UHGV virus genome: UHGV-1364951
Origin: a virus
Length of the DNA stretch: 46,583 nt
Direction: 5' to 3' (one strand)
Within the stretch, counting starts at the first letter, position 1, and the number at the start of each line of letters is the position of its first letter. Made by a program: the position numbers and the translations under genes. The notes under the pieces were generated by a model. It ran no database searches, had not been told where the DNA came from, and worked only from the letters and a program-made list of their open reading frames with translations. Below are positions 27,691-37,101 of this stretch, one piece after another.

Positions 27691-28464
27691 CTATGGCATG
27701 TCAGGCCAGTAAACGTTGCTCTTAGATCTGTTTTCGCTTGGAGTTAACAATTGAAGGTTATGCCAGCAGTGAAGACCGCAAACCAACTTGCTATTTATTG
27801 GAACAATATGGTCAACGTGCATTCCAAGACTGGCTGCCATTTCATAAACCTTCTCTATCAGAACCCTTTCAGATTCGAACCAAGATGGAATTGACCTTCT
27901 TTTTAGATATTTATATTTACGCTGGTGATATCTAACAATATTTTTATTTTCAGCCCTCCAGTGTCTTGATTGCTCATTGTGCTTATCTTTGTTTTCATTG
28001 TAATACTTCTTTGATTTTGCCTTTATCTTGTTCTTATTTGCTGCGTAATTACTTTTCTTGAACTCTGATTGGCACTTCTTACATTCAGGCCTAAGACCAT
28101 CAAGTGATGATTTGTTTTTATTGAAGTTTTCTTCATTTGCATCAAGAACTGAGTTGCATTTAGAGCAGACCTTCCTTCCATCAACAAGATATCTCAGCCT
28201 TTTACCTTTGTTTCCATCGCATGATTTACAATGAGATTTTAAACCAAGCCTCATCTTCTTGTCTGAGTAGAAGTAATCACTTGTTGCAGGAAGCATTAGA
28301 TTGCATCTTGAGCATTTCTTTTTTGTCCCTGTGCTTTCGCAACCTGCACTTTCCTGAGCAACATTTTGCTTTTGCAGTTCCGATAAACTCACTTCCGCAA
28401 ACCTCGCATTTCTTAACGGTGATAGCCATTTCTTACCCTCTATTGTAACGGTTAATTGTTTCAT
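27691..28464 (-). CDS. HNH endonuclease with multiple Cys4 zinc-ribbons (homing-endonuclease-like)
   Basis: C-terminal HNH core (HVDHIVPI…N…NLQLL…N..K); four CxxC pairs; strongly AT-rich compared with the flanking genes. Confidence 0.6.
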   Translation of the reverse strand: MKQLTVTIEGKKWLSPLRNARFAEVSLSELQKQNVAQESAGCESTGTKKKCSRCNLMLPATSDYFYSDKKMRLGLKSHCKSCDGNKGKRLRYLVDGRKVCSKCNSVLDANEENFNKNKSSLDGLRPECKKCQSEFKKSNYAANKNKIKAKSKKYYNENKDKHNEQSRHWRAENKNIVRYHQRKYKYLKRRSIPSWFESERVLIEKVYEMAASLGMHVDHIVPINSKLVCGLHCWHNLQLLTPSENRSKSNVYWPDMP

Positions 28465-28536
28465 TGCAAGTAACGATTGATTGTTTCTTGTGTAAAGATT
28501 ACAATGAATCTACATCATAGTCAACTGGAAGAAATT

Positions 28537-29421
28537 ATGCGATACGACTGGAAGGATATAGAGCCTTTAATGGTAGGAAACTGGCAGGCTGCCATCATGT
28601 CGATAGTTAATGTCGACATGAGAATTTTCAATGGCAAGCATCAGCCATGCCCGAGCTGTGGCGGCAATGATCGGTTCAGATTTGATGACCACCTCGACTA
28701 CAAAGGTGACGGCGGCGCCATCTGCAACCAGTGCGGAAACGGCAGCGGAATCACCTGGCTAATGAAGCTGTCAGGAATGACGTTTCCAGAGTCAATGGAG
28801 GCACTGGCCGGATTTCTGAACATGCACCCACGCGAAAAACTTGAGGCGATTAGAAAGCAACTTCCGAAGGTCAACCATGCTTCTGACTACCTGACAGAGG
28901 CAGAAGTGGCGGCCATCATGGGAAAGGCAGGAGGCGACACTATAACTGGTAAAACTGGCGAACTGGTGGCGATACCACTCTATATGGCTGGAACTATGAC
29001 TCCGTGCAACGTGGCTTTTCTGGCAGACGATGAAAGTGTGTCATTTCGCGCGGGTTTTAGCCATGAATACACTCGCGGAAGACTTACGCGAGGTGCAGTT
29101 ACACCCATCGGCGATAAGACTGAATGGACATACCTGGTTGCGGATTACTTAGATGCCTGGCGAGCGCATCAGCTTACCGGTGCTCATGTCTGGTGTTGCT
29201 GGTCGCCGGAAAACATGTGGGAAGTTGTGCGCAATGTGAGCGATGAACAGCGAGCTAAACTTCGCTGCATCATTAATAATAATTTCGACGAGGTATGCGC
29301 CGCCGAGAATGCTGGCCTGCCAATACTGATTACTGATGATGGTCATGATATCCGTTACAGCGGCGCCATCAGAAAAAGACTATATAAACCAGAAGAGCTA
29401 TTTGAAGCACTAAAAAAATAA
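28537..29421 (+). CDS. putative DNA primase (zinc-binding + Toprim-like)
   Basis: ATG at 28537 (track ORF starts at 28477); CPSCGG…CNQCG zinc motif; C-terminal ILITDDGHD; strong terminator follows. Confidence 0.45.
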   Translation: MRYDWKDIEPLMVGNWQAAIMSIVNVDMRIFNGKHQPCPSCGGNDRFRFDDHLDYKGDGGAICNQCGNGSGITWLMKLSGMTFPESMEALAGFLNMHPREKLEAIRKQLPKVNHASDYLTEAEVAAIMGKAGGDTITGKTGELVAIPLYMAGTMTPCNVAFLADDESVSFRAGFSHEYTRGRLTRGAVTPIGDKTEWTYLVADYLDAWRAHQLTGAHVWCCWSPENMWEVVRNVSDEQRAKLRCIINNNFDEVCAAENAGLPILITDDGHDIRYSGAIRKRLYKPEELFEALKK

Positions 29422-29445: not shown

Positions 29446-29636
29446 TATCGTATCATCAGTCTATTTATATCAACACTTGCATGAAGATGGCGATGCCAGT
29501 AACTATCAATAACATGATAGTTTGATATTAACCAGCAGCCGTGCAATTTACTCCAGAAAAACCAAACACTCCAACCATAAGGCCTAAAATGATATGCGCC
29601 TTCTGACCTTACTAAGTAACCTTTTATCTTCATCAT
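29445..29636 (-). CDS. hypothetical Trp-rich protein (63 aa)
   Basis: ATGA-coupled to the upstream ATPase gene; ends at the terminator. Confidence 0.3.
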   Translation of the reverse strand: MMKIKGYLVRSEGAYHFRPYGWSVWFFWSKLHGCWLISNYHVIDSYWHRHLHASVDINRLMIR

Positions 29637-31186
29637 TTAAGCCTTGGATTAAGGTAAACAGTGTTATTAAGGAATACGCAATATCCATCTTCTTCAAGAG
29701 ACGGCAAAACGTTTGACTTGAGTCTGTCATAAATGTGCGGTATGCCTTTGAATGGTCTAACGTTTTTTAGTGAATCATACAGCCATTTCACCGTGACATT
29801 TGTCTTTCCTTTTTGCGCAGCTGTGCGCAATTTTTCAGCAACCACATCAATTTCTGATTTCTCGCCAGCGTATCCATTTGACTCAACGGCATCGGTAAAT
29901 GTTTTTGTTAGTGCATCATAAACGCTTATGGCGCGACTTATATGCTCCTCACCAATAATTTTTGATCGACGCCCGCCATCGCACCAGTTTTCAGCGGCAT
30001 GGAATATTGCCGAAAGCCTGATTATCTGTTTGTCAGCCTTACCCATGGCACCACGAAGCAAAACGTGATCCCATTTGCCACCTGGCAGGAAATTCTTTTC
30101 CCACTGGTTTCGTAAAAGCCCAATCATACGCTGCGATTCTTTAGCGAGGGAGAAAACAACCTTCTCAGAAGCCACAAGGTTATGCACAAATCTGGCATAT
30201 TCTGCCTTTAGTTCTTTAGGCATTGGCTTACTTACCGGGCAATCATTTTCCACATCCCAATGCTCACGATAACCAAGCATTGACTGCTCACGAAGCATCA
30301 GGAATCGCTCTGACAATCCATTACCTCTGTCACCAGCAGACAGAATGGCGTCAATACTTTCATCCTGTGCAATAACGCTGATGTTACCAAGCACATAGCC
30401 AGATGAAACACCACGACCAACGCGAGCTGAGCCAACAAAACCGCCATCCCAGCCTTTAAGGATGACCTCGGCGTTAGACTTGCCACCATCTTTGCCATAT
30501 GAAAGGCCAAGACAGGTATTTAAAACGCTTGCCTCATCACTTATGAGGTTGAAAAAACCACCCTCATGAATTGCCTGGTGCTGCACTGCTTCTGGTGTCG
30601 CATCGGTTAACGGGTAGGTGATGGTGTAAAGACTTTCCAGTTTTTCCTTCTCTTTCGCGATATCATCTCCAATGATGGCTTTAGCATTCTGATTCGTCGC
30701 CTCTTTGTAGGCCTTCATAAGGTCTTCAATGCGAATGTTTATCTTTACAATTTCCTTCTCCATCTTTTTTGACAGGTTGTCATACTCAATTTTTATCGGG
30801 TTCATGTGCATTGAGTTGATAGCTGTCTTGCCAGCTGATGGCGGCTGCGACGTCACCACGTACAAGGAAACAGGCAATTCAGAACCGTAGTATTCAACGC
30901 TAAAATTTCGCGTCATGGCACTTGCTACGCATCCCAGAAGGTGCATGAATGATGTGCTAACGGGGAATTGCACAGCCCTCGCAGCTGCAACTGAGTAGCG
31001 CGTTATCAGGTCTTTCCTGTTGTCGCTGGTAAGCTCTATCTCTGAGTATGTTACATCCTTCTCCTGCCCTTCCTTGATTTCAGGCCACATGTTGTGGCTT
31101 GGTGTCATGCCATGATGAATGGCTACGCGCGCCGCAGAGGTATGCGCCTCTCTTGCCTGATTGAAGATTTCCTGTGCTGTAATCAT
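29633..31186 (-). CDS. Walker-A ATPase, putative replication initiator/helicase loader (DUF3987-like)
   Basis: 517 aa; Walker A PPSAGKT; located beside the origin-like region and the primase and helicase genes. Confidence 0.4.
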   Translation of the reverse strand: MITAQEIFNQAREAHTSAARVAIHHGMTPSHNMWPEIKEGQEKDVTYSEIELTSDNRKDLITRYSVAAARAVQFPVSTSFMHLLGCVASAMTRNFSVEYYGSELPVSLYVVTSQPPSAGKTAINSMHMNPIKIEYDNLSKKMEKEIVKINIRIEDLMKAYKEATNQNAKAIIGDDIAKEKEKLESLYTITYPLTDATPEAVQHQAIHEGGFFNLISDEASVLNTCLGLSYGKDGGKSNAEVILKGWDGGFVGSARVGRGVSSGYVLGNISVIAQDESIDAILSAGDRGNGLSERFLMLREQSMLGYREHWDVENDCPVSKPMPKELKAEYARFVHNLVASEKVVFSLAKESQRMIGLLRNQWEKNFLPGGKWDHVLLRGAMGKADKQIIRLSAIFHAAENWCDGGRRSKIIGEEHISRAISVYDALTKTFTDAVESNGYAGEKSEIDVVAEKLRTAAQKGKTNVTVKWLYDSLKNVRPFKGIPHIYDRLKSNVLPSLEEDGYCVFLNNTVYLNPRLK

Positions 31187-31444
31187 TTAAACCTCATACT
31201 CGGTTGCAAATGATTCATGTGGGTTTTCAGATAGCCATTGCTTAGCTTTAAGCACGGCTGCGTTTGCCTCTTCTGCCGTTTCAAACCTGCCAAGCTCATA
31301 CCTGAGTCTGTTAACAACAATCCTCGCCCTGAAATATCCAGAGTGCTTATGGAAGTCAACCCCTCTAAACCCGGTAGATGATGGCCTTCCGCCACCGGAT
31401 GATGAAAGTCTTTTTTTCTTAAGTAGCTTTCCATGTGCAGACAT
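31187..31444 (-). CDS. AP2-domain DNA-binding protein
   Basis: 85 aa; GFRGV…GYFRARI…LGRFETAEEA motif typical of AP2/ERF-type domains in phages; stop abuts the ATPase start. Confidence 0.5.
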   Translation of the reverse strand: MSAHGKLLKKKRLSSSGGGRPSSTGFRGVDFHKHSGYFRARIVVNRLRYELGRFETAEEANAAVLKAKQWLSENPHESFATEYEV

Positions 31445-31520
31445 AATTTACCCTCGCTCAAGAATTTTAACCATGATACCCCATAAATTACCCTTCGTAA
31501 AGCGACCACAAACAAACTCC

Positions 31521-31548
31521 GGTTAGGGTTAACTGGGTTAACTGTGGG
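31521..31548. repeat. tandem iterons GGGTTAACT x2 (plus related GGGTTA/GGGTAT copies up to 31710)
   Basis: ggttaGGGTTAACTGGGTTAACTgtgggg. Confidence 0.45.
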
Positions 31549-31810
31549 GAGGCCCATCTTCCCCAATATTTTTTACTGTAAGTGTATGTATAATAATAAT
31601 AATAGTAGTAGTTGGGTTAATTGGGTATATTATTATTCATATTATAGATTTTATTTTAACAATAAATTAACAAATGAATTATATGGGTTATATATAAGGG
31701 GATATGGGTGAAGACATACCCTGCTGCCCCTAAATTGTTAAATTACAATATTAACATTAACTTACCGCGAAAAATCTGGGGCAATTAACCTGCCCCAGCA
31801 CCTTACCCAC

Positions 31811-31827
31811 GGGGGTAAAATTTACCC
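31811..31827. promoter_or_regulatory. perfect 17-bp palindrome GGGGTAAA-A-TTTACCCC (candidate operator)
   Basis: read directly from sequence; a second hairpin ctggggca-attaacc-tgccccag lies at ~31776-31798. Confidence 0.35.
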
Positions 31828-31853
31828 CAATCGGATTTATTTTCACCATCATA

Positions 31854-31882
31854 TTGACGTAGATTGGGAGCCATCGTATAGT
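31854..31882 (+). promoter_or_regulatory. sigma70-like promoter TTGACGtagattg-N10-TATAGT
   Basis: TTGACG, a 17-bp spacer, then TATAGT, 32 bp upstream of the ATG at 31914. Confidence 0.55.
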
Positions 31883-31913
31883 TACCACACCAACAACAAA
31901 GAGGTGATGAAGA

Positions 31914-32120
31914 ATGACGAAGCTCTATAAAGCAGTAGATAAAATGGATGGCAGAGTATCTGCATTTCTTGTAAGGGATAATGGTGATGTTTGTAAAAGT
32001 TTTTGGTACATGGATGATGAGGGTGAAGTTGATGCTGCAAAGCATACCGGTAGCCTACAGACGCCATGCAGAAATGGAATGGACGACGCCATCAACCCTG
32101 TACTCATAGCGGAGTGGTAA
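31914..32120 (+). CDS. hypothetical early protein (68 aa)
   Basis: SD gaggtgatgaagaATG. Confidence 0.4.
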   Translation: MTKLYKAVDKMDGRVSAFLVRDNGDVCKSFWYMDDEGEVDAAKHTGSLQTPCRNGMDDAINPVLIAEW

Positions 32121-32122
32121 TC

Positions 32123-32308
32123 ATGACCAAAGCAATCTACACGCGCACTAAACTGGAACCAGAAATGGGCGCAGTGAAAGCGCAAAACTTTATGATGGCG
32201 CAGGCAATGCATGCATACAGCAACGGTAAGCGAGTCTGTCGCGTTTTTAGCGGAGAAGGCAAGCAGAGAGTGCTTGAGCAGGTTATCGTGTCATCTGGTG
32301 GAAACTAA
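32123..32308 (+). CDS. hypothetical protein (61 aa)
   Basis: ATG at 32123, in frame with track ORF 32066..32308. Confidence 0.35.
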   Translation: MTKAIYTRTKLEPEMGAVKAQNFMMAQAMHAYSNGKRVCRVFSGEGKQRVLEQVIVSSGGN

Positions 32309-32323
32309 ACCGGTTTAGCAACG

Positions 32324-32602
32324 ATGAATAAACTACTGGCAGTGGTTTTACTGGTTATCGCTAACGCAGCAATCGCTGAGACTATATGGGTTACGAAGTA
32401 TGCATTGACCCGTGGCATTCAGAAGTACGAAAGCGCACAGCTATTTGCTGATGGTCAGGTGGCTGTAGTTGGCGATGTTTACTTTAAACGTGGTGAATAC
32501 TGGCTTGATGAGCAACAGGCAAAAGAGCATGCAGAAACTTTGCGGCAACGCCGTGTATCTGCATTGATGCGTGAGCTTGAGCGCTTGCAGGCGGTTAAGT
32601 GA
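32324..32602 (+). CDS. small secreted protein (signal peptide)
   Basis: MNKLLAVVLLVIANAAIA-ETIW…, a cleavable signal followed by a charged helical domain. Confidence 0.45.
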   Translation: MNKLLAVVLLVIANAAIAETIWVTKYALTRGIQKYESAQLFADGQVAVVGDVYFKRGEYWLDEQQAKEHAETLRQRRVSALMRELERLQAVK

Positions 32603-35039: not shown

Positions 35040-35095
35040 TCTACGCCATGTGGTAAGATATGTCCTATGTGAGTTACTCAAAGGACACATATAAA

Positions 35096-35539
35096 ATGGC
35101 AAACCCGAACCCTAAGCACAAATTTTCATCCAGCAATCAGCCGCCACCAAGAGGAAAAAGCTACAGAACAGTGCTTCTTGAAGCATTACGTGCTGCAAAT
35201 ACTCCAATGAATGAGATTGAATTCGTCACGTACTACATCAACAAGGCGATGACATGCGAAGACGCTCAGGCCACGGGCATGCTGCGTGAGATATTCCTGC
35301 GACTGAACCCAATTCCAAAGCCTGTGGCCCCCCCTGTTGAGTTTGACTTTCCCACTGACGGCACACCTGTACAGAAGATGGATGCGATTATCAAGGGCGT
35401 CTCTACTGGCGTTGTTCCAGCTGACATTGGCAAGATGATGGCAGACATTCTGAAGGCCGGGCTTGATATCGAAGAGGTAACAGAGCTTGCGGCGCGCCTT
35501 GAGCGTCTTGAGAAATTGCTGGAGCAGCAGAATGTTTAA
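35096..35539 (+). CDS. putative terminase small subunit
   Basis: 147 aa basic/helical protein immediately upstream of TerL (ATG at 35096; track ORF starts at a GTG at 35060). Confidence 0.45.
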   Translation: MANPNPKHKFSSSNQPPPRGKSYRTVLLEALRAANTPMNEIEFVTYYINKAMTCEDAQATGMLREIFLRLNPIPKPVAPPVEFDFPTDGTPVQKMDAIIKGVSTGVVPADIGKMMADILKAGLDIEEVTELAARLERLEKLLEQQNV

Positions 35540-35687
35540 ACTATCAATGTCATTAATGGTCTGCGCCATGCTCATGTTTGCTATGGGTGATAAGTCAAAC
35601 GAGATTGCGTTTGCGATATGGGGCATCATGTTCATGGCTGCATCAACAATAATTAATATTATGGGGCAGCCACGCCATGGCTCGTAA
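35532..35687 (+). CDS. small membrane peptide (51 aa)
   Basis: MFKLSMSLMVCAMLMFAMGDKSNEIAFAIWGIMFMAASTIINIMGQPRHGS; overlaps the TerS end and the TerL start. Confidence 0.3.
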   Translation: MFKLSMSLMVCAMLMFAMGDKSNEIAFAIWGIMFMAASTIINIMGQPRHGS

Positions 35688-37101
35688 ACGCCTCTCTGCA
35701 CTTGCAATCGAAAAGCTGGAGGCACAGGTGGATGATGCGCTGACCGATGTTGCTGAGTCGGCTATCTTCGGAATCTGCGACATGCAGAAGAACGTCATCA
35801 AGCGCCTAAGAATGACCGCTACGGGAGTGGAGGATGTTACCAATGAAACCACGCAGTCAGACCACTTAATCCCCGCAAAACTCGAAAGGCTGCTTTATCC
35901 GAAGCGTAATAAGGTCGTCTTTGGTGGTCGTGCATCAACAAAGACCCGTACCGTGGCAACCATACTCACCGAGTCCGCGCGATTCAGGCCGGAGCGTATT
36001 GGCTGCTTCCGCGAAATTCAGCAGTCTATCGAGGACTCCAGCTATCAGGAGCTGGTAGACGAAATAGACCGTAAAGGCGAATCATCAGAATATCGCTGCA
36101 TCGACGGCAAGATAACCCACAAGCGAACGAAATCAAAATTCAGGTTCCGTGGCCTTTATCGCAACATCACCGGCGTCAAGGGTTTTGCCGGGATATCGAA
36201 AGCATGGGTGGAGGAGGCCGAGAACGTCAGCCAGGCATCGTGGGACATTCTTGAACCAACCATTCGCGCAGAAGGCTCTGAGATATGGGTGACGTTCAAC
36301 CCCAACAAAGAAACCGATGCCACGTGGACTCAGTGGGTGGCGCCATATTACGACAAGATGGTCGATGGCATCTATGAGGATGATGATACATTAATCATTG
36401 AGTGTAATTACCGCGATAACCCGTGGTTTTATGACACCCCGCTCCCGGCATCCATGGAGAAGATGAAGGCAGTCGACTTCGACCGCTATCTCTGGATTTG
36501 GGAAGGTAAATTTAATAAGCGCAGCGATGAGCAGGTATTCGGTGGAAAATGGCGCACTGCATCGTTTGAGGTTAATCCTGAATGGCATGGCCCATATCAC
36601 GGAATGGACTTCGGTTTCAGTGGCGACCCTGCCGCAATGGTTGAGGTTTGGGTGGAAAATCTACCCGGCGACCGGCGCAACATTTATATTAATCGTGAGT
36701 ATGGCAAGGTTCACCTTGAGATTACCGACCACCCGGCAGCAATGGACCAGGCATTTCCTATGGCGCGTAAGGCCCGCTGGTATGCCGACTCCTCAAGGCC
36801 AGAAACCATAAGTCACATCAAGCGCGCTGGCTTTGACATTCATCCCTGCAACAAATGGCCGGGCAGCGTTGAGGATGGCGTCACCTGGCTCAGGGGTTGC
36901 GACAACATCATCATTCATGACCGTTGTACAGAAATGAAAAATGAGGCCGCCATGTACAGCCATAAGGTCGACAAGAATACCGGCCTTGTGCTTACTGAAA
37001 TCGTTGATAAATACAACCACTATTGGGATGCCGTGCGCTATGCGCTAAATGACTACATCGTACAGCGCGGCTCAGGATGGATTAGGCGGAGCAGGAGATA
37101 A
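35677..37101 (+). CDS. terL: terminase large subunit
   Basis: 474 aa; N-terminal ATPase region (…KVVFGGRASTKTRTV…) and a C-terminal nuclease region with acidic residues (…WYADSSRPE…DAVRYA…). Confidence 0.75.
   Translation: MARKRLSALAIEKLEAQVDDALTDVAESAIFGICDMQKNVIKRLRMTATGVEDVTNETTQSDHLIPAKLERLLYPKRNKVVFGGRASTKTRTVATILTESARFRPERIGCFREIQQSIEDSSYQELVDEIDRKGESSEYRCIDGKITHKRTKSKFRFRGLYRNITGVKGFAGISKAWVEEAENVSQASWDILEPTIRAEGSEIWVTFNPNKETDATWTQWVAPYYDKMVDGIYEDDDTLIIECNYRDNPWFYDTPLPASMEKMKAVDFDRYLWIWEGKFNKRSDEQVFGGKWRTASFEVNPEWHGPYHGMDFGFSGDPAAMVEVWVENLPGDRRNIYINREYGKVHLEITDHPAAMDQAFPMARKARWYADSSRPETISHIKRAGFDIHPCNKWPGSVEDGVTWLRGCDNIIIHDRCTEMKNEAAMYSHKVDKNTGLVLTEIVDKYNHYWDAVRYALNDYIVQRGSGWIRRSRR

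Follow-up and report, generated by a model that had tools for sequence, protein, structure and literature searches.

Helicases that bind iterons beside their own genes are known from SaPI (Rep) and SCCmec (Cch2), where a C-terminal domain contacts the repeats (PMC7581432, citing Ubeda 2007). For the group of Klebsiella and Salmonella siphophages considered here, the searchable literature on close relatives describes no origin of replication. Here, we analyze a 469-bp interval (positions 31445-31913) in the 46.6-kb genome of a Klebsiella siphophage (UHGV virus genome UHGV-1364951; the whole stretch of 46,583 nucleotides is henceforth termed the window). In this interval, short G-rich boxes surround an AT-rich core upstream of a gene for a 517-amino-acid (aa) DUF3987 helicase. 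An initial annotation, made from the DNA letters, had proposed the interval as a candidate origin, a proposal that survives every computational test run, while three details of its interpretation fail. Sequence comparison and structural modeling make it fairly probable that positions 31526-31828 are the replication origin of the phage and that they are inherited as a unit with the helicase gene next to them.

The locus resembles these systems of staphylococcal mobile elements, the SaPI origins and the putative SCCmec Cch2 origin, in that the gene of a putative initiator helicase lies beside non-coding short repeats. It differs in arrangement: instead of following the gene, the element is located upstream of the helicase operon, with divergent promoters on either side. 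Degenerate, G-rich boxes are organized in opposed arrays with two head-to-head pairs. The helicase belongs to DUF3987 and not to DUF927 or Primase_Cterm.

A second point of comparison is provided by archaeal origins, in which ORB and mini-ORB inverted repeats are placed around an AT-rich unwinding element and MCM is loaded by Orc1/Cdc6. The DNA layout in the window is alike, with inverted, G-containing repeats bracketing an AT-rich region predicted to melt. In contrast to the archaeal systems, however, the repeats have no sequence similarity to ORBs, and no Orc1/Cdc6-like initiator occurs among the open reading frames (ORFs) profiled around the replication block. The helicase would therefore have to recognize the origin itself. 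Among phages, lambda (O sites) and P4 (alpha, TGTTCACC repeats) likewise combine an initiator with its own short repeats near AT-rich DNA, in modules that are exchangeable among relatives. The lambda origin lies inside the O gene and is served by P, a separate loader for host DnaB, whereas the candidate origin in the window lies between genes, in a phage that encodes both a helicase and a primase of its own. Seen against these systems, the element probably belongs to a known kind, i.e., an origin of iterons and an unwinding element that is paired with an initiator helicase.

Opposed G-rich boxes around an AT-rich core

The AT-rich core (31566-31700), a candidate DNA unwinding element, is the most conserved block of the region. 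The comparison is based on an alignment of ten regions, taken from phages of Klebsiella and Salmonella with helicase identities of 86-100%. Conservation peaks at ~31577-31680, a stretch with the near-invariant sequence CTAAGTRTATGTAATATAATAA...TTGGGTTAAT(T)GGGTAWATTATTATTCATATTATAG, and the block ATTATTCATATTATAG (31632-31647) is identical in 10/10 relatives. Thermodynamically, the core also stands out from the remainder of the genome: the least stable duplex of the window is found at 31584-31683 (dG -100 kcal/mol versus a mean of -139, z 4.9), and the segment 31565-31764 is the stability minimum of the window at 50-, 100- and 200-bp scales (z 4.5-4.9).

Base composition in the core is asymmetric between strands. 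On the + strand, C-free runs of 61 nt (31577-31637) and 43 nt (31672-31714) alternate with G-free runs of 25-29 nt, an asymmetry that could be relevant to the sites chosen by the primase or to the formation of R-loops. At 31520, the cumulative G-C curve of the window reaches its global minimum, the outcome of a GC-skew check that the initial annotation had put forward; as the direction of transcription switches at this point, the minimum is a weak indication confounded by gene orientation, and we do not count it as independent evidence.

Around and within the core, ~14-17 boxes of the form GGG[G/T]NA are distributed, often in pairs 8-10 bp apart. They are oriented mostly rightward on the left side of the core and leftward on the right side. 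Their positions around the core are fixed in the ten aligned relatives, the constant part being GGG[G/T] only. The motif GGG[GT]NA is present in 17 copies in 391 bp, where 0.72 would be expected from the rest of the window. This corresponds to an enrichment of ~20-fold (Poisson P ~5e-18, a value that is indicative only, as the motif was picked post hoc and part of the counts overlap). When the window is divided into 400-bp bins, the highest density of this motif likewise falls here, with 16 copies against a mean of 0.88. The related motif GGGTWA has nine of its 43 window copies inside the 469-bp interval, compared to 0.43 expected.

The left side begins with the box pair GGGTTAACT x2 (31526-31543, + strand, 9-bp period), which together with the left arm of the neighboring hairpin gives three phased G-boxes. 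In nine relatives, the position of this pair is always occupied by two GGGK boxes with variable 3' halves (GGGGCATCT, GGGGAAACC, GGGGTAAATT and others). The adjoining hairpin 1 (31545-31565) has the sequence TGGGGAGGCCCATCTTCCCCA, composed of TGGGGAGG-CCCAT-CTTCCCCA, and is followed by a T-run. Across the 10 relatives, 90% of the alignment cells in its arms are paired, including one pair that covaries from A-T to C-G; in S13e and MK54, complementarity of the arms is limited to TGGGG/CCCCA. The sequence annotated as a hairpin with T-run is thus present, but the T-run is absent in most relatives and the feature is not conserved as such.

Inside the core, a central pair on the + strand (31614-31631) consists of GGGTTAATT (31614) and GGGTATATT (31623). 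Its GGG...GGG pattern is invariant in 10/10 of these relatives, which we term type A, and it has counterparts in Vibrio phage D81 (GGGGGTAATGGGGGTATA), the metagenomic contig L021 (GGGGTAACTGGGGTGGAT) and Pectobacterium phage Ymer (GGGGAAAATGGGTAATTATTATT). Further boxes follow with TGGGTTATA at 31684 and GGGGATATGGGTG at 31698-31710. The latter opens a right-centre cluster (31698-31730) of GGGGAT-ATGGGTGA on the + strand and ATACCC-TGCTGCCCC on the - strand. All relatives have two forward and two inverted boxes in this cluster, with shuffled 3' halves.

Hairpin 2 (31776-31798) has the sequence CTGGGGCAATTAACCTGCCCCAG, i.e., CTGGGGCA-ATTAACC-TGCCCCAG, with GAAAAAT ahead of it. Its arms are paired in 92% of cells, and MK54 has a compensatory change (GGGGAAG/CTTCCCC). 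The distance between hairpins 1 and 2 is 231 bp from start to start, equal to the spacing of the two 25-nt repeats annotated in Salmonella phage Vi II-E1. Judged by their sequences, the two "hairpins" are more aptly regarded as box pairs in head-to-head orientation. The right flank (31803-31828) ends the element with inverted boxes, namely TTACCCA and the palindrome GGGGTAAAATTTACCCC (31812-31828). Of this palindrome, the right half, (A/C)TACCCCA, alone is invariant; perfect symmetry is confined to the window and ZX4, and 52% of cells are paired overall.

All elements listed by the initial annotation for this non-coding region of repeats, AT tracts and hairpins were recovered in the sequence. 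These include the GGGTTAACT tandem, the box copies at 31614-31631 and 31684-31710, the (ATA)n/(AGT)n tracts (about 31583-31612) and the stem-loop CTGGGGCAATTAACCTGCCCCAG. The 17-bp palindrome is also real, but it lies one base to the right of the position originally given and is not conserved.

Co-inheritance of the core with the helicase gene

The gene for the 517-aa protein occupies 29633-31186 on the - strand. DUF3987 proteins are MCM-related replicative helicases of superfamily 6 (SF6) that carry a winged helix-turn-helix at their C terminus (PMC4889955), and a PriCT-DUF3987 protein was characterized biochemically as a 5'-3' helicase (PMC11724360). A sequence search of the 517-aa protein against solved structures returned no match, so that a fold search was needed. 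The structural model is confident (pLDDT 90.3) and has an MCM-like core followed by a C-terminal winged helix. An above-threshold profile match, the MCM-like AAA+ fold and the winged helix thus identify the protein as a DUF3987 / SF6 MCM-like helicase. More than 1,100 homologues are contained in phage records, including those of T1-like phages at 35-40% identity.

Several comparisons tie the core to this gene. In a sensitive search with the 469-bp query, the left ~390 bp were found only in phages that also carry the 517-aa helicase. The locus is ~95% identical between the window and phages ZX4, BUCT610, pYD38-A and pIS4-A, and the core remains nearly invariant between Klebsiella and Salmonella phages with 86-87% identical helicases. 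Two genomes separate the helicase from the packaging genes. ZX4 shares the helicase (100%) and the core (95% of nucleotides) with the window, while its large terminase (TerL) and candidate small terminase are only 62% and 52% identical. Conversely, SCNJ1-C has nearly the same TerL (97%) and candidate small terminase (99%), while its helicase is of an unrelated type (21%) and its core is unalignable. By sequence, the core is inherited with the helicase and not with the terminase or the rightward genes.

This pattern argues against a packaging site, the function that a second set of observations would bring to mind. In this alternative, the repeats would be the binding site of the small terminase, with the first headful cut made in the AT core, as at the pac sites of P1 and SPP1, in which a cleavage region is flanked by repeats. 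Six independent GenBank records (ZCKP8, ZC2, ZCKp20p, KpV2811, Akira and Ymer) start or end in the homologous AT core, all inside a stretch of ~80 bp (31593-31670), and the Akira record breaks exactly midway between the two hairpins. In the genus of Ymer, genome starts were set from PhageTerm headful predictions (PMC11445585), and in Ymer itself the terminase gene is 240 bp from the region. The small terminase of the phage group is unidentified according to PMC11769527. On the other hand, PhageTerm gave no obvious termini for KlebP_265, which carries the core, and in D81 the same layout is situated directly upstream of the helicase gene. In the window, 3.1 kb separate the region from the candidate small terminase gene (35060-35539). 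AT-rich simple repeats are, moreover, common break points of assemblies. The record breaks could stem from assembly dropout in AT repeats, author convention, a PhageTerm artefact or real DNA ends. Weighing both sides, we consider a pac site highly improbable. Physical genome ends or a cos site at this position were set aside in view of the headful, permuted genomes reported for relatives in three papers and of the terminase comparison.

The packaging genes themselves are mosaic relative to the replication genes, as seen from the TerL identities of 62% to ZX4 and 97% to SCNJ1-C. The 159-aa protein encoded just upstream of TerL (35060-35539; phrog_9747, no Pfam match) is the small-terminase candidate by position. 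ZX4 contains an HNH gene between this candidate and TerL that the window lacks.

In the slot corresponding to 29633-31835, Klebsiella phages that are otherwise alike have at least four alternative cassettes for replication, each combining a helicase type with non-coding DNA that bears its own repeats; the right recombination boundary is sharp, at ~31835. The non-coding DNA of the other types differs entirely from that of the window. In type B, a 496-aa helicase-like protein is accompanied by four copies of TGGATAA around an AT core. Type B' encodes a 549-aa helicase-like protein and has GGGAAC x11, with GTTCCC on one side of the AT core and GGGAAC on the other. Type C carries a fusion of AEP primase, PriCT and DUF3987 together with five to six copies of GACTTTA, which is part of a AGACTTTAG repeat; the fusion protein is annotated in one relative as a putative P4-specific primase, which adds to the likeness to P4. 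From these sequences, each helicase type has its own over-represented repeat around an AT core, as expected for exchangeable pairs of initiator and origin.

The plan extends to more distant homologues of the helicase. It adjoins the gene in L021 (64% identity), Ymer (51%) and D81 (38%, in a 79-kb genome). In all three, pairs of GGGGTAA-type boxes, a head-to-head pair, an AT-rich or (TA)n core and the same boxes in inverted form follow one another in this order. The DNA of these loci cannot be aligned to the window, yet each locus is strongly enriched in boxes.

In the type-B loci of SCNJ1-C (positions 2660-2790 of its locus) and Tbat1_6, the repeats read (T/A)TGGATAA(G/A), with inverted TTATCCAA, and match the Escherichia coli DnaA box TTATCCACA at 7/9 positions. 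On this sequence likeness, the type-B cassette might recruit host DnaA. Both loci additionally have a GGGTTAAATGGGTTAAG pair ~95 bp upstream of the common promoter.

Phage T1 (Drexlerviridae) has a similar organization, with a leftward operon that includes a 37%-identical DUF3987 protein and rightward small genes leading to the terminase. Its divergent gap of ~690 bp (AY216660, 48687-48836 + 1-538) contains CGATTAACA x3 (11-bp period), AAATTACGCC x2, GATTACGATTACG and a (TA)n-rich core of ~90 bp. In contrast to the window, the T1 gap has no GGGK boxes, and the T1 helicase gene does not adjoin the gap but is located inside the operon. For TLS and SU57, two T1-like phages, published papers state that no origin was found. 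By analogy, the T1 gap may be a parallel candidate origin, a comparison that is suggestive only. We set T1-like phages aside as a test of a helicase-adjacent origin, as they have no gap beside the helicase and the T1 gap has its own repeats.

From the anatomy and linkage described above, we infer the following course of initiation. The 517-aa helicase would bind the boxes through its C-terminal winged helix and assemble on both flanks in opposite orientations, then open the AT core and load itself. The zinc-ribbon primase encoded nearby would prime at the opened origin and a host polymerase would extend; the ORFs examined around the replication block include no polymerase gene, and none is reported in the paper on the close relative KlebP_265. 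At a later stage, the concatemers needed in headful packaging would be produced by Erf, exonuclease VIII and SSB. Boxes in the spacer of the leftward promoter would furthermore let the same protein limit its own expression. The boldest part of this scheme, i.e., that the DUF3987 helicase itself recognizes the origin and that the opposed arrays place two head-to-head rings without a separate initiator or loader, we advance tentatively, as a possibility with the odds against it. If true, the system would be a bacterial-virus counterpart of MCM double-hexamer loading without ORC/Cdc6. It would be common to many siphophages of enterobacteria and Vibrio and might extend to T1-like phages, its specificity being swapped as a cassette.

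At residues ~463-480 of the winged helix, phages with GGGK boxes (the window, IME207, L021, Ymer and D81) read (W/S/A)(L/I)(Y/R)DSxK(N/K), and T1 and KP36, which have other repeats, read xxxxCRN at the same positions, a comparison of few sequences that is confounded by phylogeny.

Divergent promoters and the AP2-like gene

The 469-bp interval is bounded by the leftward gene of an 85-aa protein (31187-31444) and by a rightward gene starting at 31914. Predicted promoters point to both sides. The leftward promoter P_L (31473-31501, - strand), which would serve the operon of the small gene and the helicase, consists of TTTACG, a 17-nt spacer and TATCAT (9/12 in a consensus scan). Two G-boxes, GGGTAAT and GGGGTAT, are contained in its spacer; at the corresponding place in the alignment, Vi II-E1, IME207 and Akira have TTGCAA-17-TAGTAT. 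The rightward promoter P_R (+ strand; 10/12 in the scan) is composed of TTGACG (31854-31859), a 17-nt spacer and TATAGT (31877-31882), followed by leader DNA with a ribosome-binding site, AGAGGTG, at 31900, and by the start codon.

Relatives with other replication modules match the interval only over this promoter and leader segment (31836-31913, + strand), at 85-99% identity, and in a search with the 469 bp alone, homology to such relatives starts at query position 391-392. The sequence comparison therefore divides the interval in two, a left part of ~390 bp that is linked to replication and a right part of 78 bp that is a separate, common promoter and leader. The initial annotation had treated the whole interval as one origin hub, from which the final 78 bp, with their promoter and 5' leader, have to be removed.

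A number of observations weigh against an origin at 31526-31828. The element sits between divergent promoters, ~25 bp upstream of each -35 hexamer, and its linkage to the helicase equally fits a long regulatory region of the replication operon. The invariant block ATTATTCATATTATAG reads a perfect TATAAT on the minus strand (31641-31646); judged by sequence, it could supply the -10 element for a leftward promoter within the core, or act as a site of melting or protein binding. Beyond a fixed GGG[G/T], the boxes are degenerate and their motif was defined post hoc, and exact 6-mers are only modestly enriched (5 copies, where block shuffles of the region alone have a 99th percentile of 4). The link between box and helicase is not universal, because T1 has a 37%-identical helicase yet different repeats. 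Finally, the breaks of several GenBank records inside the AT core hint at DNA ends.

The promoter-related observations would be accommodated if the element acted purely in transcription control. The boxes would then be operators or activator sites for P_L and P_R, e.g., in autoregulation of the replication operon or in a switch from early to late expression, and the AT core an UP-element, a bending region or an internal promoter, with replication starting elsewhere or proceeding by recombination. Both promoters are good matches to the sigma-70 type, boxes lie within the P_L spacer, and the TATAAT at 31641-31646 is invariant. Hairpin 2 with its T5 run, which is kept in 8/10 relatives, scores as terminator-like on the minus strand, and the regulatory DNA of a replication module would also be linked to that module. 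As terminators, neither hairpin 1 nor hairpin 2 has an upstream gene on the relevant strand to terminate. An element of ~300 bp with at least 14 sites and the melting minimum of the genome far exceeds known operator needs. The boxes persist irrespective of which candidate regulator occupies the adjacent slot (the AP2-like protein or one of two unrelated small proteins), and the plan of iterons, AT core and inverted iterons recurs with three other helicase types. We favor an origin over operators alone because of the size of the element, the number of sites, the melting minimum and the recurrence of the plan with unrelated helicases. Exclusive control of transcription is accordingly unlikely in our assessment; some regulatory function, e.g., autoregulation, probably coexists with origin function.

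A third alternative assigns recognition of the repeats to the 85-aa protein encoded at 31187-31444 (- strand) in a variable slot, a role that the initial annotation had proposed for it. In this scenario, the small protein would bind the repeats as origin initiator and recruit the helicase. The gene adjoins the repeats, its product has the signature of an AP2-type DNA-binding fold, and AP2 domains of plant factors bind G/C-rich boxes. The Pfam match to AP2 (E 4.9e-5, 24 bits) is below the cut-off of 33.3; the protein also matches the AP2-like region of HNH-endonuclease PHROGs (E 3e-12) and the AP2 domain of WRI1 (E 0.02). By these matches it is AP2-like and predicted to bind DNA, but not a certified AP2/ERF member.

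The distribution of the gene does not support a role as initiator. No more than 24 records contain it, and in Vi II-E1 it is present as a pseudogene. MK54 has one unrelated small protein in the slot, and GP-1 and STGO-35-1 have another (<25% identity). A tblastn search detected no AP2 homologue in MK54, GP-1, VLCpiS13a, STGO-35-1, the ZC phages and KpV2811, all of which, like Vi II-E1, keep the boxes and the core. Nor do the left boxes covary with the type of small protein, as KlebP_265 (AP2) and GP-1 (non-AP2) share GGGGCATCT boxes. The proposal that the AP2 protein binds the repeats or the palindrome is not supported, given phages that keep the core with the gene replaced, absent or decayed. 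The protein is thus not an obligatory binder, and an initiator of this kind has very little probability in our view. From its distribution, the protein is probably an accessory factor or regulator that is dispensable for the core.

Other functions were considered and rejected. A hidden protein-coding gene is not supported: the internal ORFs of 55 aa (31544-31711) and 43 aa (31757-31888) are not conserved in relatives, and in Vi II-E1 the 55-aa frame is interrupted by a stop after 15 codons. A structured or small RNA was dismissed as well, with an Rfam scan of 31000-32400 giving only a chance-level match to a long non-coding RNA (E 0.86). Involvement of host DnaA, IHF or Dam was rejected since their sites were not found in the region, which contains neither a GATC nor an IHF consensus, nor a DnaA box (TTATCCACA) at up to one mismatch; the relaxed motif TTATNCACA has two one-mismatch matches in the AT-rich DNA of the region.

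Gene neighborhood and implications for replication modules

The gene context is mostly as initially annotated, the exception being the primase, which is encoded on the + strand and outside the leftward block. This DnaG/T7-type primase with a zinc ribbon (28477-29421) matches Pfam Zn_Ribbon_Prim (E 4.9e-13) and is annotated as DNA primase in relatives. The leftward block further includes genes for an SF2 helicase, a RecE-like exonuclease VIII, Erf and SSB. A 257-aa ORF (27691-28464) located between the genes of the SF2 helicase and the primase has PHROG matches of the endonuclease VII / HNH-like type, and ZX4 is annotated with a shorter HNH endonuclease at this position; the ORF is probably a homing-endonuclease insertion.

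On the other side, the rightward operon from 31914 comprises small genes and then TerL (35677-37101). The second ORF (32066-32308), as listed, begins within the first (68 aa, 31914-32120). In this second ORF, the match to DUF7540 starts at residue 20 and relatives annotate 61 aa, for which reason the true start is probably the ATG at 32123.

What the finding would mean depends on how the origin works. In the ordinary case, it would be one more iteron origin. As a cassette of the helicase gene and ~300 bp, the origin would explain the mosaicism of replication modules among therapeutic Klebsiella phages and would offer a handle for engineering or for replication-based assays. Such a cassette would also provide a tractable bacterial system in which to study how an MCM-type helicase finds and opens DNA alone.

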